The position numbers were made by a program, and so were the translations under genes. Positions 2,532 through 12,841 of a stretch of 64,000 bases of DNA are shown here, in pieces. The notes beneath the pieces were generated by a model, which did not search any database, was not told the DNA's origin, and worked only from the letters and a program-made list of their open reading frames with translations. Location of the stretch: contig DASWWS010000002.1 in assembly GCA_036405895.1 (NCBI GenBank), positions 124,029 to 188,028 of the forward strand, in the 5' to 3' direction. Source of the DNA: Minisyncoccota bacterium. GTDB lineage: Bacteria > Patescibacteriota > Minisyncoccia > Phycocordibacterales > UBA9973. Positions within the stretch are counted from its first letter, which is position 1. The number at the start of each line of letters is the position of its first letter.

Positions 2532-3329
2532 CTATTTAAAAACCGTATCAATCTCTTTCACCAACCAGCTTCCGAGATTCTCTAGAGTATCCACTATTGT
2601 ATTTTTGTCAGAAGTTGGATTAACGGCAAGCTCTAACGCTTTGTACATTTCTTCCTTTTTCTCTGGATAGTATTTTGAGAATTCTTCATAACAAGGATAG
2701 AGGTCGCGTGTGTATTTCTGGGACCGTTCCATCACAAGCTCAAACCCTGAACGTATAATACGCTTCATAATCCAAGTACATCGACGCTTTATCTCTTCTT
2801 CACTACGCTCTTCTTGCAACCACTCTTTCGTCTTATTGATTTCTCGTTCGATGCCTTCAAAATGTTGAGCTGTATCTACGCCCGGCTTTAGAGCCGGAAG
2901 AGTACTAAAAAGATTGTTACCGTACACGCAGATACTTTGGGTCTTGATCATTATTCGATCCCCTTTCGAGTCTGGTATCTCTTCAAGTGGTACGACGCCT
3001 ATTTCTACTCCGACTATAAATGGAAATTGTTTCTTTACTTTTTCTACAAAATCTTTTGACCATTGGATATCAACGTCATCGTATGACACTGTAACAACAG
3101 CGAAACTGTCTATGTCGGAGATGTTGTTTATCGCTTGCCCCTTCGCTACCGAACCTCTTATATAGACACTGTGCAAATGTTCACCAAGGTGTTTTTGATA
3201 TGCATCTTTGACCATTTCAACCGCGGGCATCCATGCCGCCTGAATCTTTTCTGGTGATGTAGTATTGACGATAAAACCATCGGTATCAGTTTGCAAAAAT
3301 GATCCAATGGCTTGTACTTCGTTTTTCAT
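2532..3329 (-). CDS. Pol-beta superfamily nucleotidyltransferase (ANT/KNTase-like)
   Basis: RGSVAKGQAINNISDIDSFAVV is a GS-x(9-13)-DxD NTase motif, followed by a helical C-terminal domain. Start at ATG 3329 (TGATACAAT-N6-ATG); the track start at 3335 is TTG. Confidence 0.75.
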   Translation of the reverse strand: MKNEVQAIGSFLQTDTDGFIVNTTSPEKIQAAWMPAVEMVKDAYQKHLGEHLHSVYIRGSVAKGQAINNISDIDSFAVVTVSYDDVDIQWSKDFVEKVKKQFPFIVGVEIGVVPLEEIPDSKGDRIMIKTQSICVYGNNLFSTLPALKPGVDTAQHFEGIEREINKTKEWLQEERSEEEIKRRCTWIMKRIIRSGFELVMERSQKYTRDLYPCYEEFSKYYPEKKEEMYKALELAVNPTSDKNTIVDTLENLGSWLVKEIDTVFK

Positions 3330-3350
3330 GTCCAAATTGTATCATGGGAA

Positions 3351-3500
3351 AGCTGCGGAGGTGGGTTTATAGTCGCTCTCGCTAAAAACAGAGTGGGTCG
3401 CTTGCGGAGGCATTATATAGTCGCTGACGCTCCTTATAATGCACTGCGCAAAATATGGTCGCACCTACGGTGCTTCCTATTTTGCGGAGGATGTGAGACG
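3351..3500. repeat. ~130-150 bp intergenic module, copy Y (paralog of 1799-1950)
   Basis: Same sequence as copy X, ending in TTTGCGGAGGATGTGAGA. That end duplicates the 3' end (rc) of tRNA-Ser at 3694-3708. Confidence 0.85.
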
Positions 3501-3648
3501 CTGAGCTATTCGCCCGCGAGTCTTTGTTTGATCAGTCACCAAACAAAGCTCTGGGCACCGGCTCAGTAGATTCTTCTGCTGAAGAATCATACTTCCGCCG
3601 TTCTCATCTCAACGTAAACCAAAGCAGTTTGGTTTACTCATCCTCCGC
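3484..3648 (-). ncRNA. tRNA-Ser-derived structured RNA, copy A (unclassified)
   Basis: The ends reproduce the neighbouring tRNA: 5' GGAGGAT and 3' TCTCACATCCTCCGC. There is a closing stem of about 12 bp. Hairpins TAAACCAAA/TTTGGTTTA, GATTCTTC-AGCA-GAAGAATC and CTTTGTTTG/CAAACAAAG are present. The core is shared with copy B. Strand is inferred from sense identity to the tRNA. Confidence 0.55.
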
Positions 3649-3652
3649 GAAT

Positions 3653-3688
3653 AAAAATGGCCCAGATTTCTCTGGGACGCATTTTTAT
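3653..3688. terminator. bidirectional hairpin with A-run and T-run between element A and tRNA-Ser
   Basis: AAAAATG-G-CCCAGA-TTTC-TCTGGG-ACG-CATTTTT. The equivalent hairpin at 4539-4575 has a different, compensating stem (CCGAC/GTCGG). Confidence 0.7.
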
Positions 3689-3693
3689 ACTCG

Positions 3694-3779
3694 CGGAGGA
3701 TGTGAGATTCGAACTCACGGGCCTTTAAGGGGCCGACGGTTTAGTAAACCGTTGATTTAAACCACTCATCCAATCCTCC
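3694..3779 (-). tRNA. tRNA-Ser, class II, apparent anticodon ACU
   Basis: Manual cloverleaf: acceptor GGAGGAT/ATCCTCC, anticodon arm ACGGT-TTACTAA-ACCGT, long variable arm, T-arm GTGAG-TTCGAAT-CTCAC, discriminator G. No encoded CCA. Confidence 0.8.
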
Positions 3780-3835
3780 AGGACACCAATAAGTGTTTTG
3801 ATATCCTACCATACTCGCCTAAATAGAAAAGAAAA

Positions 3836-3866
3836 CAGCCTAACGAGGACCGTCCTCGTTAGGCTG
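3836..3866. terminator. palindromic hairpin (GGAC-N-GTCC family), bidirectional terminator
   Basis: CAGCCTAACGAGGACCGTCCTCGTTAGGCTG, flanked by an A-run and a T-run. Lies downstream of the DoxX gene. Confidence 0.75.
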
Positions 3867-3880
3867 TTTTTAAGTACGTA

Positions 3881-4312
3881 TTAGTACTGAGGCTGAGGCT
3901 CGTGCTTCATCAAGCGCATCAGGTGCGAAAGCGAGTATCGGCCGGGACCCTGCACCAAAAGCGGGATGAGGGCTGCAATGAATACGAGGTTCACTTCCCA
4001 TCCGCCGAGGAATTCCATGTTCATCAAATTCTTTACAACAAATGCAGCAACAATCATGACAATAATAAGGAGGAATGAAACAATCTCGGTTCCAATACCC
4101 ACAATGAGCGCCAGACCGCCGATTGTTTCAACAAGCGTCACAATCCATGCCATGAGTCCCGCAAGCGGGAATCCCCATGCAACGAAGCCTTCCGTTACCG
4201 CCTCAATCCCCATGTTGAACTTCTGCAAGCCATGAAGGAAGAAAGCAATACCGACAATAATGCGGACAATCAACAGCGCTGTATTTATTTTGCCTTTGAA
4301 TATATTTCTCAT
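3881..4312 (-). CDS. DoxX family membrane protein
   Basis: Four TM helices. LLIVRIIVGIAFFLHGLQKF is a DoxX-type N-terminus. TGATACACT-N7-ATG. Confidence 0.8.
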   Translation of the reverse strand: MRNIFKGKINTALLIVRIIVGIAFFLHGLQKFNMGIEAVTEGFVAWGFPLAGLMAWIVTLVETIGGLALIVGIGTEIVSFLLIIVMIVAAFVVKNLMNMEFLGGWEVNLVFIAALIPLLVQGPGRYSLSHLMRLMKHEPQPQY

Positions 4313-4348
4313 GTACTAAAGTGTATCACTGATAGGTATAACAGAAAA

Positions 4349-4371
4349 CTAGCAAGGACGGTCCTTGCTAG
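4349..4371. terminator. palindromic hairpin (GGAC-N-GTCC family)
   Basis: CTAGCAAGGACGGTCCTTGCTAG followed by TTTTTT. Identical 23-mer at 28059-28081. Confidence 0.7.
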
Positions 4372-4383
4372 TTTTTTATTTTT

Positions 4384-4534
4384 GCGGAGACGGCGAGAAT
4401 TTCTCCCTCGCCTCTCGTTGTGTCAGACACACTTCCTCGGGCTGGTCACCAGCTCAGTAGATTTCTTTGCTAAGAAATCATACTTCCGCTGTTCGAATCT
4501 CACCCGCAATGCAGTTTGCATTGCTCGTCTCCGC
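4384..4534 (-). ncRNA. tRNA-Ser-derived structured RNA, copy B (unclassified)
   Basis: 5' GGAGACG and 3' CTCGCCGTCTCCGC are identical to the adjacent tRNA-Ser(GCU). The T-stem GCGAG/CTCGC is retained with a 9-nt loop. Hairpins CAATGCA/TGCATTG and GATTTCTT-AGCA-AAGAAATC covary with copy A. Confidence 0.55.
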
Positions 4535-4538
4535 GAAT

Positions 4539-4575
4539 AAAAATGGCCCGACATTAGGTCGGACTCATTTTTATA
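4539..4575. terminator. bidirectional hairpin with A-run and T-run between element B and tRNA-Ser
   Basis: AAAAATGG-CCGAC-ATTAG-GTCGG-ACTCATTTTT. Confidence 0.7.
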
Positions 4576-4579
4576 CTCG

Positions 4580-4664
4580 CGGAGACGGCGAGATTCGAAC
4601 TCGCGAGGCTGTGACACCTGCCTCCTTAGCAAGGAGGTACAATCGACCACTCTGACACGTCTCC
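4580..4664 (-). tRNA. tRNA-Ser (anticodon GCU)
   Basis: Acceptor GGAGACG/CGTCTCC, anticodon arm CCTCC-TTGCTAA-GGAGG, long variable arm, T-arm GCGAG-TTCGAAT-CTCGC, discriminator G. Confidence 0.85.
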
Positions 4665-4725
4665 AGTACCGCCACTGTATCATGAAAATACAGTTTTTTA
4701 AAGACTACCCTGCTATACTCTATAC

Positions 4726-5025
4726 ATGACCACTACACACAAAGTACTTGTTGGAATTCTTATCATTATTGTTATTGCGCTTCTTGCGCGCTACGTTGTT
4801 TTTAAAGAAAAGTTCGATGAATGGGGTGCAGGACTCCAGCGTATTGAAGACTGGCAGACTGAGTACAAGCAAAAGAACCCAAATGCTTCCAAAGAAGAAA
4901 TGGATGCTGCATTTGAAGCTGGCATGGACAACATCACTGAGTGGAAAGCAGAGTATAAGCGCGATAATCCAGGCGCGACAGATGCCGAGGCGGATGCTGC
5001 ATTTTCCGCAATGTGGAATAACTAA
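4726..5025 (+). CDS. small membrane-anchored protein with tandem W-x-x-EYK-x-x-NP...DAAF repeats
   Basis: N-terminal TM helix, then two copies of a motif of about 28 aa. TGCTATACT-N6-ATG. Confidence 0.65.
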   Translation: MTTTHKVLVGILIIIVIALLARYVVFKEKFDEWGAGLQRIEDWQTEYKQKNPNASKEEMDAAFEAGMDNITEWKAEYKRDNPGATDAEADAAFSAMWNN

Positions 5026-6117: not shown

Positions 6118-6600
6118 ATGAATCGACACATCATCAAAAACACGCTCTTTGCACTGGTCAGTATCATTTTTCTTCTCAGCGCTATAGGAAAGTTTGCCGA
6201 CCGCGAGGCAATTGTCGAACTCTTTGCCAATGCTGGCATGGCAGACTATCTTATCCGCTTTGCAGTGATACAGCTGATTATTGTTGCGTGCCTGTGGTAC
6301 AAGCCGCTTCGCAGTCTTGGGGTATTGGTTGCAAGCGCATTCCTCGGAGGGGTGATTGTCATGATGATTAACACAGACTGCAGCCCTCTCTCGGCAGGAC
6401 TCACACTTATCATGCTGTGGATCGCGTACAAGCTTGAATGGTGGGGATACTGGAATCACTACACTGACACCTGTTCCTGCGGGTGGTGCAAGCTCCATGG
6501 AAAAGGGAAGGGCAAAAAAGCCGTCTGCCCCAATCCAAAAGACGAATGCGACTGCGGCAACCACTGTAAATGCCCCAAGGGCAAGTGCACCTGTTCGTAA
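6118..6600 (+). CDS. DoxX-like membrane protein with Cys-rich metallothionein-like C-terminal tail
   Basis: Four TM helices, then CSCGWCKLHGKGKGKKAVCPNPKDECDCGNHCKCPKGKCTCS. Start at ATG 6118 (TGATACACT-N8-ATG). Confidence 0.7.
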   Translation: MNRHIIKNTLFALVSIIFLLSAIGKFADREAIVELFANAGMADYLIRFAVIQLIIVACLWYKPLRSLGVLVASAFLGGVIVMMINTDCSPLSAGLTLIMLWIAYKLEWWGYWNHYTDTCSCGWCKLHGKGKGKKAVCPNPKDECDCGNHCKCPKGKCTCS

Positions 6601-6622
6601 TTGTGCGCTACAATAAAAGAAT

Positions 6623-8794
6623 ATGACGCTTGAGTCACCTATCGAAACATTGATCCGACTCAAGGAAGATACCCGAGCCGGCCTTCGCCGTTTGGGTATT
6701 TTTTCTGTGCGCGACCTTTTGTACCACTTCCCCACCCGCTATGCAGACGCAAGTATCTTTACTTCCATCGCAGGCCTGGTCGAAGGCGAGACGGCGACTA
6801 TCCGCGGAACCGTGAAAAAGATTGCCACGAAGAAATCATGGAAGACAAAAGTCCCTATGAGCGAAGGCGTGATCGAAGACATGAGCGGCACCATTACGGT
6901 TGTATGGTTCAATCAGCCATACTTGGCGCGCATGATTCGCACAGGAAGCGTCGTAGAGCTCACTGGAAAAGTCACGCTTTATAAAGACATGCCGGCATTG
7001 GTAAACCCCACCGCGCGCGAAGAGCGCGTGATGCCGATTGATAGCCACGACTCTTTATTTGGCACAGGCGACGCAAATGAGGGTGGAGTGTTGACGCCGG
7101 TGTATGCCGAAACAAAAGACGTATCGAGTTTGTGGTTCTCCCACACGATAGCGCGAGCACTTTCCACGCTCGATAGTATTCCCGACCATATCCCCAACAC
7201 CCTTCTTGAGCAATACTCACTACCAAGCCTCAAGACTGCGCTCATTTGGATACACAGCCCCAAAAACCACAACGATGCAACAATTGCGCGCAAGCGCTTT
7301 GCATATGACGAGATCTTTTCCATCAATGTTGCCCGCGCGCAAGAACGGTTGCGGGTAAAAAGTCAGCGTGCCTACTCTATCGATATGAGCACCATTGATA
7401 TGAATTATTTTTTAAAGCGCTTTTCTTTTCCTCTTACCACAGCGCAAAACTCTTCCATTGAACACATTCTCAAGGACCTCGAACAAGATGTGCCGATGTC
7501 GCGCCTCTTAGAAGGCGATGTAGGCAGCGGCAAAACCGCAGTTGCAGCAGTTGCAGCATATGCAACCGTCATGAACCGTCCGAGCAACTCTGGAAAAAAA
7601 CAAACGTTTGGAAACCTCCAAGTTGCATATATGGCGCCAACAGAGCTTTTAGCAACGCAGCACTTCGAATCCTTCATCGAGCTTTTTGAAGGAACGGGCA
7701 TTTCGCTTGCGCTCATCACCGGAAGCGGCTGCCGCAAGTATCCGAGCAAGGTCGCGTCGAACACAAAAGGATGGACCACTATTTCCCGCGCCCAGCTTTC
7801 AAAATGGATCGCGAACGGCGAGATACCGATAGTGATCGGCACGCACACGCTCATTCAAAAATCCCTTACCTTCAAGCATCTCGCACTCGCCATCATCGAT
7901 GAGCAGCACCGCTTCGGGCTCAAGCAGCGCCAGGGCCTCGCAAAAAAAGACACGCACTTCCCTCACTTGCTTTCAATGACTGCAACTCCCATCCCGCGCA
8001 CACTTGCACTAACCTTGTACGGCGACCTTGATCTCTCAGTGCTCGACGTATTGCCGGCGGGGCGCAAAAAGATCGAGACCTCGCTCGTCACCATTGATAA
8101 GCGCGAAGCAATGTATGAGGCCATCCGCGCCATTCTTAAAGAGGGCCGGCAGCTTTATGTCATCTGCCCGCGCATCGGCGACCCGGATCCGGATAAAGCA
8201 AAAGCAATACAAGCAAAGTCGGTAACAACAGAAGCGGTGCGCCTCCAGAAAGAAGTCTTCCCGGAATTCCGCATTGGTGTACTGCACAGCAAAATGACGA
8301 AAGAAAAAAAGGAGGACGCCATGAAAAGCTTTGCCAATCATGAAACCGATATATTGGTTGCAACAAGTGTGGTTGAAGTCGGGGTAAACGTGCCGAACGC
8401 AACCCAAATAATCATCGAAGGTGCCGAGCGCTTTGGGCTCTCCCAGCTTCACCAGCTTCGCGGCCGCGTTGCGCGCTCAAGCTACCAGGCGCACTGCTAT
8501 TTGTTTGCGGATGCAAAAACCGAGCGCACGCTCGAGCGCATGAACTATTTCCTGAAAGCAGAGGACGGTTTTGCGCTCGCCGAGTACGACCTCGCAATGC
8601 GCGGTACCGGCGAACTTACCGGCACCAGCCAGTGGGGCATCTCCGACATTGGCATGGAGGCGCTTCGCAACATCAAGCTTGTCGAAGCTGCGCGGCAAAG
8701 TGCGCAGGCGCTTGTTGCAAGCGATCCGACATTGGCCGACCACCCCCTCTTGGTTGCAATTGTTTCCAAATACGAAACCATGCATTTTGAATAA
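6623..8794 (+). CDS. recG: ATP-dependent DNA helicase RecG
   Basis: Wedge/OB N-terminus, Walker A GDVGSGKT, DEQH box, QLHQLRGRVAR motif VI, 723 aa. Confidence 0.95.
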   Translation: MTLESPIETLIRLKEDTRAGLRRLGIFSVRDLLYHFPTRYADASIFTSIAGLVEGETATIRGTVKKIATKKSWKTKVPMSEGVIEDMSGTITVVWFNQPYLARMIRTGSVVELTGKVTLYKDMPALVNPTAREERVMPIDSHDSLFGTGDANEGGVLTPVYAETKDVSSLWFSHTIARALSTLDSIPDHIPNTLLEQYSLPSLKTALIWIHSPKNHNDATIARKRFAYDEIFSINVARAQERLRVKSQRAYSIDMSTIDMNYFLKRFSFPLTTAQNSSIEHILKDLEQDVPMSRLLEGDVGSGKTAVAAVAAYATVMNRPSNSGKKQTFGNLQVAYMAPTELLATQHFESFIELFEGTGISLALITGSGCRKYPSKVASNTKGWTTISRAQLSKWIANGEIPIVIGTHTLIQKSLTFKHLALAIIDEQHRFGLKQRQGLAKKDTHFPHLLSMTATPIPRTLALTLYGDLDLSVLDVLPAGRKKIETSLVTIDKREAMYEAIRAILKEGRQLYVICPRIGDPDPDKAKAIQAKSVTTEAVRLQKEVFPEFRIGVLHSKMTKEKKEDAMKSFANHETDILVATSVVEVGVNVPNATQIIIEGAERFGLSQLHQLRGRVARSSYQAHCYLFADAKTERTLERMNYFLKAEDGFALAEYDLAMRGTGELTGTSQWGISDIGMEALRNIKLVEAARQSAQALVASDPTLADHPLLVAIVSKYETMHFE

Positions 8795-8835
8795 AAAAGC
8801 CACACAATATTACTGTGTGGCTTTCTCTCATTGTG

Positions 8836-9372
8836 TTACTTAATGAGAGTAATAATTTGTCCTTTTGGTACAGGAATCGTAACAATGTGCGATACCCCTG
8901 TATCAAGGTTTCGGTACTCGGCCGTGAGCTCAACGCTTGAGCTCATCTTATTTTCCATTGCCGTACTAATGTCGCTCGTGACAAGAACTTTTTGTGTTCC
9001 ATTTTTGTTTGTGTCGAACGATGAAAAATCAGTACCGCTTTGGGTAGCAACGCGCTTAGACGTGCTCGTTCCTCCCAATGTTACTGCGGACTTAATTGCA
9101 CTGTATGCGATAGGGATTGATTCTTCTTGAAGAAATCGCACCCGGCAAAATAGTGTAATCTCCACATTCTCAGGATTGTTGATCGTTAGATCTCCGGCAA
9201 ACATAAGAATGCCGGCCTGAGGTGTTTTCACTTCAGCGTCGTCATAGGTAGTGCTTTTCTTAAATGAAAATGTCGGCGCCTGAAATGCAGGTTCAACATA
9301 TCCTTCTTCCTTTTCGCAGCTTGTAGCGAAAAACAGGGTTGCCGCCAGGGCGCATAACAATACATTTTTCAT
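8836..9372 (-). CDS. lipoprotein, unknown function
   Basis: Signal peptide with lipobox LFFATSC. AT-rich gene. Confidence 0.65.
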   Translation of the reverse strand: MKNVLLCALAATLFFATSCEKEEGYVEPAFQAPTFSFKKSTTYDDAEVKTPQAGILMFAGDLTINNPENVEITLFCRVRFLQEESIPIAYSAIKSAVTLGGTSTSKRVATQSGTDFSSFDTNKNGTQKVLVTSDISTAMENKMSSSVELTAEYRNLDTGVSHIVTIPVPKGQIITLIK

Positions 9373-9576
9373 GGTCTATTTAGTTTTTATGGTTCAAATT
9401 TACTTTGTTTATTTTTTATATTATATCACTTTATTTATAAAAAGTCAATAGAGCTCCTCTGCCTAAAAATTGTCTTTTACGTCAGGACTGATAGAATCAA
9501 AGGGTTCTCATTTCCGCTCTTAGCTGTTTGGTGTACGGGCCAAGCAAGGTAGGGGTTATAGAAAATCAATATACTT

Positions 9577-9650
9577 CCGCTCTTAGCTCAGTTGGTTAGA
9601 GCGCCGAGCTTATACCTCGGTGGTCCATGGTTCGAATCCATGAGGGCGGA
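9577..9650 (+). tRNA. tRNA with anticodon UAU (Ile, AUA-decoding)
   Basis: Acceptor CCGCTCT/AGGGCGG (one G-U), D-arm TAGCTCAGTTGGTTAGAGC, anticodon arm CCGAG-CTTATAC-CTCGG, T-arm CATGG-TTCGAAT-CCATG. Confidence 0.8.
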
Positions 9651-9744
9651 CATTAAGTAAACAAATATGCAGTATGCCTCTGAGGCAATGGCGTGTAGCG
9701 TTTCGACCCCAGGGAGAGGCGGACAAGTGCTATACTGTACACAT

Positions 9745-10215
9745 ATGAATGAATTTGTAGCAAAGAAACTCGGCGAAGTGCTCGCCTTTAACCAAGTCGG
9801 CACGGACACCTATGAAAAAGGAAAAGAAGCACTCATCGCAGTACTGGGAGCTGAACGTTTTGCGGATATTGAAGACAAGAACCGCATTCACGGAGAAGCA
9901 GTGATGAAGATCGCGACCGACGCGGGCATGATCGACACAACGCTTGCAAAAGCCGAAAAGACCGGAGAGAAGCTCAAGGCTATGCGCGACCTCTATGTTG
10001 GTGACCAATGGGACAATGCCACAGAGCTGATGGAATGGAGCGGATTTTTCGAAGGCGCAGCAATCGTGCACTGGGCGCTGGTGCGCGGTGCGGCAGAAGG
10101 CATGAATGACGAAACCCTCCTCGAACTTTCAAACGAAGGAGTGAATTGGCACTATGAGCTTTTGGAAATGGCTGAAAGCGAACTCGGCACCACCGGACAG
10201 AACAAGGCTTCCTAA
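9745..10215 (+). CDS. hypothetical helical protein (possibly a ferritin-like four-helix bundle)
   Basis: ORF 9667..10215. Start moved to ATG 9745 (TGCTATACT-N8-ATG) so it no longer abuts the tRNA. The functional guess is weak. Confidence 0.55.
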   Translation: MNEFVAKKLGEVLAFNQVGTDTYEKGKEALIAVLGAERFADIEDKNRIHGEAVMKIATDAGMIDTTLAKAEKTGEKLKAMRDLYVGDQWDNATELMEWSGFFEGAAIVHWALVRGAAEGMNDETLLELSNEGVNWHYELLEMAESELGTTGQNKAS

Positions 10216-10219
10216 TAAT

Positions 10220-10278
10220 CAGAAGGACCGTCCTTCTGAAAATAAAAACAACCTAACGAGGACCGTCCTCGTTAGGTT
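10220..10278. repeat. two adjacent GGAC-N-GTCC palindromes acting as a convergent terminator
   Basis: CAGAAGGACCGTCCTTCTG (10220-10238) and AACCTAACGAGGACCGTCCTCGTTAGGTT (10250-10278) followed by TTTTT. Confidence 0.8.
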
Positions 10279-10289
10279 GTTTTTATTGT

Positions 10290-12188
10290 TTAAAGCTCGA
10301 TTTTCTTTAATGGAATGCCGTGAGCGGAAATAATTGCTTCATATTCCGGCTGTTCGAGCGTTTCCACTTCGATTAGCTTTGCGGTGATTGCTTCGAGCAC
10401 ACCCTTGTGTTCGGTAAGAACAGTGCGGGCACGCTCAAATCCTTCTTTCATGATGCGCTGCACTTCGGAGTCGACAAGTGCACTAGTCTGCTCTGAATAT
10501 TCTTTTCCTTTCACTCCTTCGCCGAACATTGCGCGGCCTCCGTCGTTTTCAAGGGCAAGCGGGCCGATGGCATCGCTCATCCCCCATCGTGTCACCATGG
10601 CGCGTGCAAGCGCGGTTGCAACCTGAAGGTCGTTTGAAGGACCGGTTGTCACGTCCCCAAAGATTGATTCTTCTGCAACGTATCCTGCAAGCGACATTGC
10701 AATGTCGTCGAGATATTCTTTCTTGGTGGTAAGCTTTCGCTCTTCAAGCGGAAGCTTCAGCGTGTACCCACCGGCGCGCCCTCGTGCAACAATAGAAACT
10801 TTGTGCACCGGGTCAGCATCCGGAAGAACTGATGCAACAAGCGCATGCGCTGCTTCATGATACGCCGTGATTTTCTTTTCTTTCTTTGTCAGCAAATGGC
10901 TCTTGCGCTCAGGCCCGATCATCACTTTTTCAATGGAGCGTACAAGGTCAAACTGCGATATCTTCTTTCGATTTTCGCGTGCTGCCAAGATTGCACCTTC
11001 GTTCATTAATGAGTAGAGGTCGGCTCCGGAGAATCCGGGTGTGCGCTCTGCTATCACCTTGAGATTCACGTCTTCTGCAAACGGCTTTTTGGTGCTGTGC
11101 ACATTCAAAATGTCTTCGCGGTCGCGACGGTCTGGAAGGTCAAGCATCACTCGGCGGTCAAATCGGCCTGGACGCAACAGTGCTGGGTCCAATACATCGC
11201 TTCGGTTCGTTGCCGCCATCACGATTACCTTGTCGTTCGGTTCAAAGCCGTCCATCTCCACCAATATTTGGTTGAGTGTCTGTTCTCGCTCGTCGTTTCC
11301 ACCGCCATATCCGCCTCCGCGTACGCGTCCTACCGCATCAATTTCATCGATAAAAATAATGGACGGTGCTGCGCGCTTTGCCATCTTGAAAAGGTCGCGC
11401 ACGCGCGATGCGCCCACACCGACAAACATCTCAACAAATTCTGATCCTGAAAGATGGAAGAACGGCACACTTGCCTCCCCCGCTACAGCGCGAGCCAAGA
11501 GCGTCTTCCCTGTTCCTGGTGCACCGGCGAGCAATACTCCTTTTGGAATGCGCGCTCCGATATCCAAAAACTTTTTTGGATTCTTCAAAAAGTCCACAAT
11601 TTCTTTGAGTTCTTCCTTGGCTTCGCGCGCACCTGCAACATCTTTGAATGTTACCCTGTTTGTCGTATCGCTTGGGTCAGTGATGCGCGCTTTTGACTGC
11701 CCGAAATTAAATGCCTGCATGCCAGCACCCTTTGCCTGGCGTGTAAGCATCCAAAAAAAGAATCCAATCAATACTACCGGCAAAAGTATTGGGAGAATGG
11801 TAAGGAAAAAGAATGCGAGGCCTGATGCGCTGGCAACAGTAATGTCGACTGCGCTGATGCGAGGCTCTTCAACACCATATGCTGCCAATGTTTCCACCAA
11901 TGAAGCACTTGGTTCTTTTTTGCTTTCAAGAATTGTCTCGTCTGTTTTTGTAACAGTGAGCGCTTGGTCGTCGATGACAATGCTCTTCACCTCCCCTGCC
12001 TGCACAAGGCGTGCAACTTCTGAAAGGGTCACCACTTCGTTCTTTTCTGTCCCCATACCAGAGACAACAGAGTAGCCGGCAGTAAGGAGTGCGAAGATAA
12101 GGAGGGTTGAAAATATATAGGAAGAAAGAGAGCGCTTGGGAGGCGTCTTTTTTATAGGGTTCGGTGTAGGGATTTCTTGTTTGGACAT
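10290..12188 (-). CDS. ftsH: ATP-dependent zinc metalloprotease FtsH
   Basis: Two N-terminal TM helices, AAA+ Walker A GAPGTGKT, an SRH region, HEAAH zinc motif. Confidence 0.97.
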
Positions 12189-12455
12189 AGGCTTTATTAT
12201 ACATAAAAACGATAAAAACGCCTTTTAGGGGGTATCGACCTCCAGGTTACTAAATATTTTTCAGGGTATCGCCTCACAAATCACTAAGCATAATTCTTCG
12301 CTCCACTCGAATTCTGCCAAGTGTTCGCGAGCCCGGCTCGGTTCCGCCATAGGCGGATACCTGCGCCTTTTCGATACCCACGCAAGACAAGCAGTTGCCC
12401 TGTTCCATCTCCACCTAAAAAACAAAAAACGCCCAAGGGCGCTAATGTTGTTACA

Positions 12456-12841
12456 GGTGGAGATGGGGGTATCGAAACCCCGTGCAAATGATCACGAACA
12501 AGTACTTCTCCATGCGTAGTACGATTTAATTGTTAAGACAGAATCTCAAAACCGTACAAAACGATTCATGTCCGAGCCTCGATTGTTTCGGAGTACTGAC
12601 GAGACACGCAGTACTTCCTACGTTCGATGAATGTTGCCGCGACTACGTTATCGAACATCACGTAGAGCGACACCGGATTGACCTAAATTTAGGCGAATGC
12701 CGGAGCGAAGTTTCCAAAATATGGAGACTTCACTGATGCTGTGCTGTTGCCAGGTAAGCGTTCGGACGAATTTTACGAGATACGTCCATTCTCGGCATGC
12801 ATACAGGCCCGATACATCAAATGTCGAAACCTTTCATCCCC
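12456..12841 (-). ncRNA. ssrA: tmRNA (SsrA)
   Basis: 5' GGGGATGAAAGGTTTCGAC and 3' GGGGTTTCGATACCCCCATCTCCACC, with a G3-U70 acceptor. Internal tag frame 12751-12689 reads GNSTASVKSPYFGNFAPAFA-stop. Lies directly downstream of smpB. Confidence 0.9.

Follow-up and report, generated by a model that had tools for sequence, protein, structure and literature searches.

A family of candidate miniature insertion elements at the 3′ ends of tRNA and tmRNA genes in Patescibacteria

A number of mobile elements recognise their target by means of nucleic acid, as in the pairing of the exon- and intron-binding sites (EBS/IBS) of group II introns, the bridge RNA of IS110 and the pairing of guide and cleavage site in IS608, and the CTX-phage presents a folded single-stranded attachment site (attP) to the target dif for Xer-type recombination. 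The 3′ flanks of tRNA genes also give rise to external transcribed spacer (ETS) RNAs, and tRNA-like modules are found in the tRNA-like domain (TLD) of transfer-messenger RNA (tmRNA) and in YrlA. For integrative elements and their integrase-less derivatives, tandem accretion and direct repeats at the 3′ end of tRNA or tmRNA (t(m)RNA) genes are known (PMC5704250). Here we describe three elements, A, B and C, from 64,000 nt of a Minisyncoccota bacterium (assembly GCA_036405895.1, contig DASWWS010000002.1, positions 124,029 to 188,028; this whole stretch is referred to as the window). The reading which we favour, with some reservation, is that they form one family of miniature, non-coding, non-autonomous insertion elements that target the 3′ ends of t(m)RNA genes in Paceibacteria-type Patescibacteria.

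Each unit is ~165-215 nt long and is made up of its own hairpin (s), a 5′ arm (a′) that is antisense to the end of the host gene, a conserved core (P3 and P4) and a direct repeat (a) of the gene 3′ end. By analogy, the unit would seem to work most like a miniature integrative element, similar to a cis-mobilizable element (CIME) or a miniature inverted-repeat transposable element (MITE). As in CIMEs and integrative elements, insertion is at the 3′ end of a t(m)RNA gene which is left intact and flanked by direct repeats of that end, and there are tandem arrays with decayed older copies and presence/absence polymorphism (PMC5704250). However, the unit is gene-less, only ~200 nt in size and has one homologous core at five host genes, in addition to which it carries an antisense copy of its target and helices that covary in a strand-specific manner. 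In common with MITEs and palindrome-associated transposable elements (PATEs), the units are small, non-coding, multi-copy, strongly folding and presumably mobilised in trans, but they lack a short target-site duplication of fixed length (the repeat is 13-19 nt), are strictly found at t(m)RNA 3′ ends and have internal sequence matched to the target; a repeat search returned a/a′ and internal hairpins as the only inverted repeats, none of which joins the termini.

The layout at the two tRNA-Ser genes of the window is as follows.

3694-3779, minus strand: tRNA-Ser(ACU), host gene of element A (ARAGORN; Rfam, 55 bits)
3693-3707, minus strand: left copy of repeat a at tRNA-Ser(ACU), TCTCACATCCTCCGC, the last 15 nt
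3649-3692, minus strand: spacer sA, comprising an A-run, a G+C hairpin and a T-run, terminator-like on both strands (terminator consensus scan)
3484-3648, minus strand: element A, 165 nt (covariance model, 162 bits)
3639-3648, minus strand: first half of the antisense arm of element A
3614-3637, minus strand: P2 hairpin of element A
3605-3611, minus strand: second half of the antisense arm of element A, also P1b
3559-3600, minus strand: P3 domain of element A, with the AGCA loop at 3577-3580
3513-3555, minus strand: P4 domain of element A
3494-3500, minus strand: 3′ strand of P1b in element A
3484-3498, minus strand: right repeat a of element A
3354-3425, minus strand: two decayed repeats of ~45 nt with CCTCCGCA at their ends, 3′ of element A
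4580-4664, minus strand: tRNA-Ser(GCU), host gene of element B (ARAGORN; Rfam, 50 bits)
4579-4593, minus strand: left copy of repeat a at tRNA-Ser(GCU)
4535-4578, minus strand: spacer sB, a bidirectional terminator-like hairpin, near-identical to sA outside the stem
4384-4534, minus strand: element B, 151 nt (covariance model, 143 bits)
4526-4534, minus strand: first half of the arm of element B
4507-4523, minus strand: P2 of element B
4492-4505, minus strand: second half of the arm of element B, GGTGAGATTCGAAC, the 14-nt complement of the tRNA T-loop and T-stem
4450-4491, minus strand: P3 domain of element B
4406-4445, minus strand: P4 domain of element B
4384-4398, minus strand: right repeat of element B
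4343-4377, minus strand: terminator-like hairpin (A-run, hairpin, T-run) 3′ of element B, of the same kind as the terminators at empty tRNA sites

A sequence-only reading of this region had placed two elements behind minus-strand tRNA-Ser genes and hairpin spacers, and both genes were confirmed by ARAGORN and Rfam. The spacers are 44 nt each with the same order of A-run, hairpin and T-run, and the stem of sA runs on into the tRNA 3′ end and the 5′ arm of the element to give a 32-nt imperfect palindrome (inverted-repeat search). The ends of each element do fit its own neighbour, as had been claimed, through exact 15-nt direct repeats of the tRNA 3′ end (3484-3498 = 3693-3707; 4384-4398 = 4579-4593), and a closing helix of 9-10 bp is formed by GCGGAGGATG/CATCCTCCGC in element A and GCGGAGACG/CGTCTCCGC in element B. 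Units A and B are 80% identical overall with an invariant core, GCGGAAGTATGAT...TCTACTGAGCYGGTG, which is confined to these two places in the window; two matches of the core 15-mer were reached in 0 of 100 shuffles.

A third homologous element, missed in the sequence-only reading, lies directly behind the tmRNA gene.

12455-12841, minus strand: tmRNA gene, host of element C (Rfam, 108.7 bits)
12417-12454, minus strand: spacer sC, the terminator hairpin behind tmRNA
12264-12416, minus strand: element C, the tmRNA-linked (type 2) member (covariance model, E=6e-6)
AGGTGGAGATGG, minus strand: part of element C antisense to the tmRNA 3′ end
12383-12402, minus strand: P2 of element C, with two G.U pairs
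GGGTATCGAAA, minus strand: part of element C antisense to the tmRNA T-arm
12335-12367, minus strand: core of element C
12228-12254, minus strand: remnant TTTAGTAACCTGGAGGTCGATACCCCC, left from the 3′ end of a further tmRNA-linked element, of the beta variant (compared with the copies in relatives L009 and L011)

The 3′ repeat of element C is cut off at CGATACCC; complete tmRNA-linked copies are present in L009 and L013 and an empty tmRNA site in L029. The remnant at 12228-12254 shows tandem accretion behind tmRNA. A covariance model built from type-1 copies only found the tmRNA-linked copies at full length (E = 4.5e-8, 6e-6 and 3.4e-4) and nothing else in 342 kb, thus the type-1 and tmRNA-linked elements belong to one family.

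Contigs of relatives, designated here by L numbers, were retrieved via homologues of RecG, Rep and SmpB, and ten copies from six genomes were found in all. In L009, the RecG of which is 97% identical, tRNA-Ser(ACU) is followed by a copy (A′) whose 3′ repeat is cut, a second one (A3) is found 3.6 kb off, and a related element that repeats 18 nt of the 3′ end of tmRNA stands immediately behind the tmRNA gene; the tmRNA-linked copies known are those of the window, L009, L013 and L011. L021 has a type-1 copy behind tRNA-Ile(UAU), with a spacer that is without a T-run. The copy in L001 has no adjoining tRNA, and a tRNA ending in ...CCCTGTCGGGTA was predicted to lie beyond a serine-recombinase gene. 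This prediction was borne out in L024, in which a tRNA-Gln(UUG) with the exact CCCTGTCGGGTA end is found 5.9 kb from the module, the two being separated by an island with a Rep and a large serine recombinase; a 12/16 copy of the tRNA-Gln end is located just upstream of the module hairpin. The possibility that the module is part of such islands was considered and rejected, as the sister islands L025-L028 are without it, and it is more likely that the L024 island inserted later, between tRNA-Gln and the module. The host genes of the family are therefore tRNA-Ser(ACU), tRNA-Ser(GCU), tRNA-Ile(UAU) and tmRNA, with one further member cognate to tRNA-Gln(UUG), and the earlier description of the elements as tRNA-Ser-specific, tRNA-Ser-derived paralogues does not hold.

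Two details of L009 may be recorded here: copy A3 has a 42-nt AT-rich insertion at the junction after GGTGC (L009 3770-3811), and ~3.6 kb with four open reading frames (ORFs) of no assigned function lie between two direct copies of module plus flank.

Evidence of insertion comes from the comparison of occupied and empty sites among related genomes. The gene runs directly into a terminator at tRNA-Ser(ACU) in L011, at tRNA-Ser(GCU) in L009/L010 and at tmRNA in L019 and L029; in L029, tmRNA runs straight into its own terminator and into the same ftsH promoter that is found 3′ of the element in the window. At occupied sites the same A-rich terminator stands 3′ of the right repeat, so that the inserted segment is s-a′-core-a, between the gene and its original terminator. 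As shown by this comparison of occupied with empty sites, the insertion product reads gene(a)-s-a′-core-a-terminator, with the intact gene and its original terminator on either side. Element B is absent in L009/L010, the RecG of which is 97% identical, and the tmRNA-linked variants differ between the window and L009, the former resembling that of L013 and the latter that of L011, both of which are more distant genomes. Tandem remnants are found at 12228-12254 and 3354-3425, and the 3′ repeat has decayed in three of the ten copies. The empty sites, presence/absence, variant replacement and tandem remnants thus point to recent, repeated, site-specific insertions and not to tRNA-Ser paralogues. 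Since the elements are present or absent between genomes with 97% identical RecG, are swapped for other variants and suffer decay of the 3′ repeat, their behaviour is that of a mobile insertion and not that of a conserved RNA handled by tRNA enzymes; the interpretation put forward in the sequence-only reading is, as a whole, partly supported.

The short repeats ...AGCGACTATAWA...CCTCCGCA at 3354-3425 resemble further decayed copies of the tRNA-Ser(ACU) 3′ end, and repeats of the same CCTCCGCA type trail both L009 copies (about 7300-7345 and 3590-3650). They are probably remnants of older insertions at tRNA-Ser(ACU) and look like the product of another kind of insert. It was also observed that tRNA-Ser(GCU) and its leader are inverted between the window (4580-4664) and L009 (8278-8367), which coincides with the presence or absence of element B.

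The elements had been described as structured and non-coding with a core conserved between the copies and covarying hairpins, and this part of the description was upheld. Folding against shuffles gave z = -8.7 for element A and -6.4 for element B. Covariation statistics were taken from a MAFFT alignment of the six type-1 copies, in which 94.4% of cells were paired as compared with 32-48% when partners were slid, and 12 pairs had changed on both sides, a number reached by 0 of 500 shuffles; compensatory substitutions among homologues, which had been proposed as a check, are therefore present. For all ten copies the pairs were counted by script from a manual alignment, giving 351 Watson-Crick pairs, 11 G.U, 1 A.C and 3 mismatches on the gene-sense strand. 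P3, a 7-8 bp tetraloop hairpin, occurs in four states round the conserved AGCA loop (GATTCTTC/GAAGAATC, GATTTCTT/AAGAAATC, GATTCCTC/GAGGAATC and ATCCGCT/AGCGGAT), P2 in at least six and P4a in three (GAG/CTC, GCC/GGC and GGC/GCC), whilst the loops CUGC, AGCA and GACUG are kept as the stems vary. The 12 covarying pairs and the excess of G.U over A.C (11 to 1) argue that one strand is under selection for pairing. These substitution patterns show that the core, P2 and the closing helices are selected for pairing in the host-gene-sense strand, the minus strand of the window; the selected single strand is probably RNA, with single-stranded DNA as the alternative.

Several other identities for the folded segment were considered and rejected. 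A plus-strand tRNA-like gene with a GCU 'anticodon' is contradicted by the tetraloop form of P3, by the same loop being found beside tRNA-Ile and tRNA-Gln, and by the G.U to A.C ratio on the minus strand. Inspection by eye for K-turn, box C/D, hammerhead, sarcin-ricin and 8-17-like motifs found none whose consensus was satisfied, and a riboswitch for the next gene was discarded as the downstream genes are unrelated (a nucleotidyltransferase, DoxX, FtsH and others). For a group I intron there is no Rfam intron match at E<=10, a core of ~110 nt and a complete host gene upstream, and for a retron non-coding RNA the neighbours (an AadA-like nucleotidyltransferase, DoxX and FtsH) include no reverse-transcriptase domain.

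Two features of the unit are unusual, its covarying core and the target-matched arm a′. The latter is antisense to the terminal ~25 nt of the host gene, taking in the T-loop, the 3′ strand of the T-stem, the 3′ strand of the acceptor stem and 2-4 trailer bases. It carries no complement to CCA and matches the genomic trailer instead; a primer-binding site for mature tRNA was rejected for this reason. The gene 3′ end and trailer pair with the 5′ arm of the element as an imperfect palindrome of 30-32 nt per arm, the P2 hairpin splitting a′ exactly at the boundary of acceptor and T-stem; past this hairpin, the arm goes on to complement the 3′ strand of the T-stem and the T-loop. Pairing of a′ with the true gene end and trailer extends over 13-15 nt in the first half (where intact) and 6-14 nt in the second; with the element's own 3′ repeat, which is a copy of the gene 3′ end starting at the end of the T-loop, it is weaker, at 9-10 nt and 7-10 nt, respectively.

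A mechanism may be proposed on this basis. The hairpin s would usually double as the intrinsic terminator of the host gene, and the folded form would be the element's own active form, most likely an RNA that arises when transcription from the strong t(m)RNA promoter reads through or, alternatively, a single-stranded DNA intermediate. While the element is free, a′ would be paired to the a that the element itself carries; at the target it would pair with the chromosomal a, which has the same sequence. A trans-acting enzyme could then insert the unit by recombination or strand exchange at a, with the target restored in the process. Since insertion spares the function of the gene and restores the target, arrays accumulate whilst old copies decay.

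It is tempting to go further and to see in a′ a programmable RNA or single-stranded DNA guide, pairing over 20-28 nt round P2 and exchanging its own paired a for the chromosomal one with the help of a recombinase in trans, although we judge this to be unlikely. As in the guide-directed elements, the unit has a segment complementary to the DNA just upstream of the insertion point that varies with the target. What sets it apart from them is the lack of an intron core and of a nearby reverse transcriptase, DEDD recombinase or Y1 transposase, a much longer complementarity (20-28 nt) and a copy of the target in the sense orientation, with which the guide pairs. The unit is ORF-free, and neither a DEDD recombinase, as expected for an IS110 bridge RNA, nor TnpB or IscB, as expected for an IS200-IS605 omega RNA, flanks any copy. 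A comparison with the attP of the CTX-phage is also instructive, since a target copy, spacer and inverted copy would suit a duplex attachment (att) site on a single-stranded circle and would yield a-s-a′-core-a; only this architecture and the strand-specific G.T/G.U bias are consistent with a CTX-type attP. However, a single-stranded DNA form and Xer-type recombination would be hypothetical for the unit, its site lies in a t(m)RNA gene instead of dif, and P2 interrupts the duplex. Were the guide reading true, the unit would be a gene-less, self-targeting mobile element whose specificity evolves through the a′/a pair (Ser-ACU, Ser-GCU, Ile-UAU, Gln-UUG and tmRNA).

The interpretation of A, B and C as insertion elements should be considered with caution, as several points weigh against it. 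No integrase, transposase or reverse transcriptase adjoins any of the ten copies (0/10), so that the cognate integrase of an integrative element is missing from beside the unit, and tblastn queries with three serine recombinases, an Xer-like recombinase and Rep returned nothing from the window or from L009, L011, L013 and L021, which are partial genomes; with no recombinase beside any copy or in the searched sequence, the mobilising enzyme is hypothetical. An excised or circular form of the unit was not seen, the re-matching of a′ and a to a new host gene is unexplained, and the repeat varies in length (13, 15, 15 and 18-19 nt), which is an ill fit to a fixed staggered cut. A scan for a sigma-70-like promoter inside the unit found none and bidirectional terminator-like hairpins stand on both flanks, thus any RNA would come mainly from t(m)RNA read-through and the RNA form of the element is putative. 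Finally, the distribution of the family is poorly known, resting on ten copies from six genomes to which pattern scans added one true copy. The exact-pattern scan of species-representative genomes gave one true homologue, the L001 copy from a Minisyncoccia metagenome-assembled genome, and one chance match; the scans of metagenome contigs and viral contigs returned only chance matches, a third viral scan nothing, and BLAST against phage and plasmid collections no matches. The exact patterns were too strict, as exemplified by the L021 copy, which has GGAAGTGTATCC.

Among the other explanations, a host-serving tRNA-like small RNA, co-transcribed with the t(m)RNA, excised by RNase P/Z, stable and perhaps CCA-tailed or charged, comes closest to the original interpretation and is unlikely. 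Its appeal is that the helices P1 and P1b with the P2 branch reproduce the topology of acceptor and T-stem, that the strong covariation and the conservation of the loops point to a single strand with a function, in the same sense as the tRNA, that the element lies directly 3′ of highly transcribed genes, and that the L021 spacer has no T-run. Like the tRNA 3′ ETS RNAs and tRNA-like modules, the unit occupies a tRNA 3′ flank and has a closing helix of acceptor/T-arm topology, but it is without a T-loop, its discriminator is paired, it has no match in the Rfam tRNA clan and it behaves as a mobile insertion. Searches with cmscan at E<=10 (3300-4800) and E<=5 (12180-12460) matched true tRNAs only in clan CL00001 and nothing on A, B or C, and ARAGORN found no extra tRNA gene. 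The proposed check against Rfam families was thus passed, with no match even at E<=10; nothing in Rfam 15 came near the gathering score, the stray sX4 and group-II-D1D4-4 matches being far below it and the former driven by the tRNA. In place of a canonical T-arm (5 bp and a 7-nt T-loop) with an unpaired discriminator and CCA, there is a ~100-nt core at the position of the T-loop and a closing helix that pairs through G73 and C74. With the discriminator and C74 paired, a part for RNase P/Z, CCA addition or SerRS in its handling is not favoured.

The ends of the elements had been taken for a tRNA-like acceptor module, of which the topology stands, being that of an acceptor-plus-T-stem-like helix with a branch, but the derivation does not, since the match to the neighbour follows from insertion at the gene 3′ end, which leaves a direct repeat and an antisense arm that covers the T-loop and the unprocessed trailer. 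The supposed repeat of the 5′ acceptor strand in the same sense is instead complementary to the 3′ strand; 'same sense' cannot be inferred from an acceptor helix, which reads identically on both strands. The complete tmRNA-linked copy of L009 is decisive here, as its 5′ strand is GGAGATG whereas that of tmRNA itself is GGGGATG, and it is the former which is the Watson-Crick complement of the 3′ strand; this confirms that the arm is of antisense origin. The T-stem with a 9-nt loop seen in element B (GCGAG/CTCGC) overlaps GGCGAGGGAGA, which is kept beside other tRNAs, and its 3′ strand pairs with GTGAGA (P1b). For a host-serving RNA, it is therefore a difficulty that the 5′ arm is the complement of the 3′ strand and trailer and no copy of the mature tRNA, with G3.U70 of tmRNA turned into A-U, and that the discriminator and C74 are paired. 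Further difficulties are the patchy occurrence even between 97% relatives, the swapping of variants, the decay of 3′ strands in 3/10 copies, the terminators separating gene from element and the absence of specificity for tRNA-Ser.

It is improbable that the units are inert scars of larger islands, that is, CIME-like attL-attR remnants with the interior deleted and a merely incidental structure. Direct repeats of the tRNA 3′ end from the T-loop, tandem arrays and decay are classic signs of integrase insertion and accretion (PMC5704250), and large serine recombinase islands do occur at tRNA 3′ ends in L016, L024 and L025. However, independent deletions would not leave the same boundaries and a homologous core at five host genes in 10/10 copies, double-stranded att arms should show no compensatory changes with a strand-specific G.U bias, and the Rep and serine-recombinase islands L025-L028 do not contain the module.

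A 3′ module acting in cis on the t(m)RNA gene, in which a long hairpin controls termination, RNase III processing or the quality control of read-through precursors, is very improbable. It would account for the continuous palindrome of gene 3′ end, s and a′ (30-32 nt per arm), for an a′ which fits the precursor with its trailer rather than the mature RNA, and for a terminator supplied right behind the gene, but it leaves the ~110-nt conserved core and the 3′ direct repeat unexplained, and is hard to reconcile with empty sites in close relatives and with copies 5.9 kb (L024) and 3.6 kb (L009) from their tRNA. A relic of an inverted tRNA duplication, arising by fold-back or template switching at the terminator and later diversified, is barely credible: element B does show collinear short matches to antisense tRNA-Ser(GCU) (GAGATTCGAAC, CTTAGCAA and TCTGACAC) and a′ might be fitted to a new neighbour by quasi-palindrome correction, but the anticodon-like and D-like matches of 8-11 nt are at chance level (~0.5-1 expected) and do not change with the host, the AGCA loop being the same at tRNA-Ile and tRNA-Gln and element A having AGC, not AGU, beside tRNA-Ser(ACU), P3 is a 7-8 bp tetraloop hairpin and no anticodon arm, and the tmRNA-linked copies are homologous to the tRNA-linked ones.

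If the interpretation as insertion elements is true, some of the smallest bacterial genomes harbour gene-less mobile units of ~200 nt which land on the tails of tRNA and tmRNA genes. These would offer a minimal model of insertion specificity encoded in nucleic acid and not in protein, and possibly a lead to a new trans-acting recombination activity. There is also a practical side for annotation: the likeness of such units to novel tRNA-like RNAs would lead to miscalls, and their positions flag hot spots of integration in Patescibacteria genomes.

The islands of L024 (2946-8917) and L025 (about 6500-12486) are about 5.5-6 kb in size and carry a CRESS-like Rep (Viral_Rep and S3 helicase) beside a large serine recombinase; their insertion site is a tRNA-Gln or a tRNA-Pro. 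Homologues of this Rep number 148, and the few with source names are all of Paceibacteria type (Patescibacteria). The far end of the L025 island is a 600-nt non-coding G+C-rich stretch (6500-7100), which may hold another structured RNA or an att region. The gene for tRNA-Ile(UAU) (window 9577-9651) is kept in all relatives, and in L016 (6485-7798) and L015 (16348-17658) a 437-aa large serine recombinase gene ends within its 3′ end, which suggests that an integrated island uses tRNA-Ile(UAU) in these two.

Two further observations were made in the window. Bacterial A34 is normally confined to tRNA-Arg(ACG), whereas tRNA-Ser(ACU), with A34, is kept alongside tRNA-Ser(GCU) in the window (3694-3779), L009, L011, L013, L015, L017, L019 and L021. 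At 1157-1861 and 1971-2447, a protein that matches the Methyltransf_15 family (RNA cap guanine-N2 methyltransferase; E=4e-34) adjoins a small WGR-domain protein.

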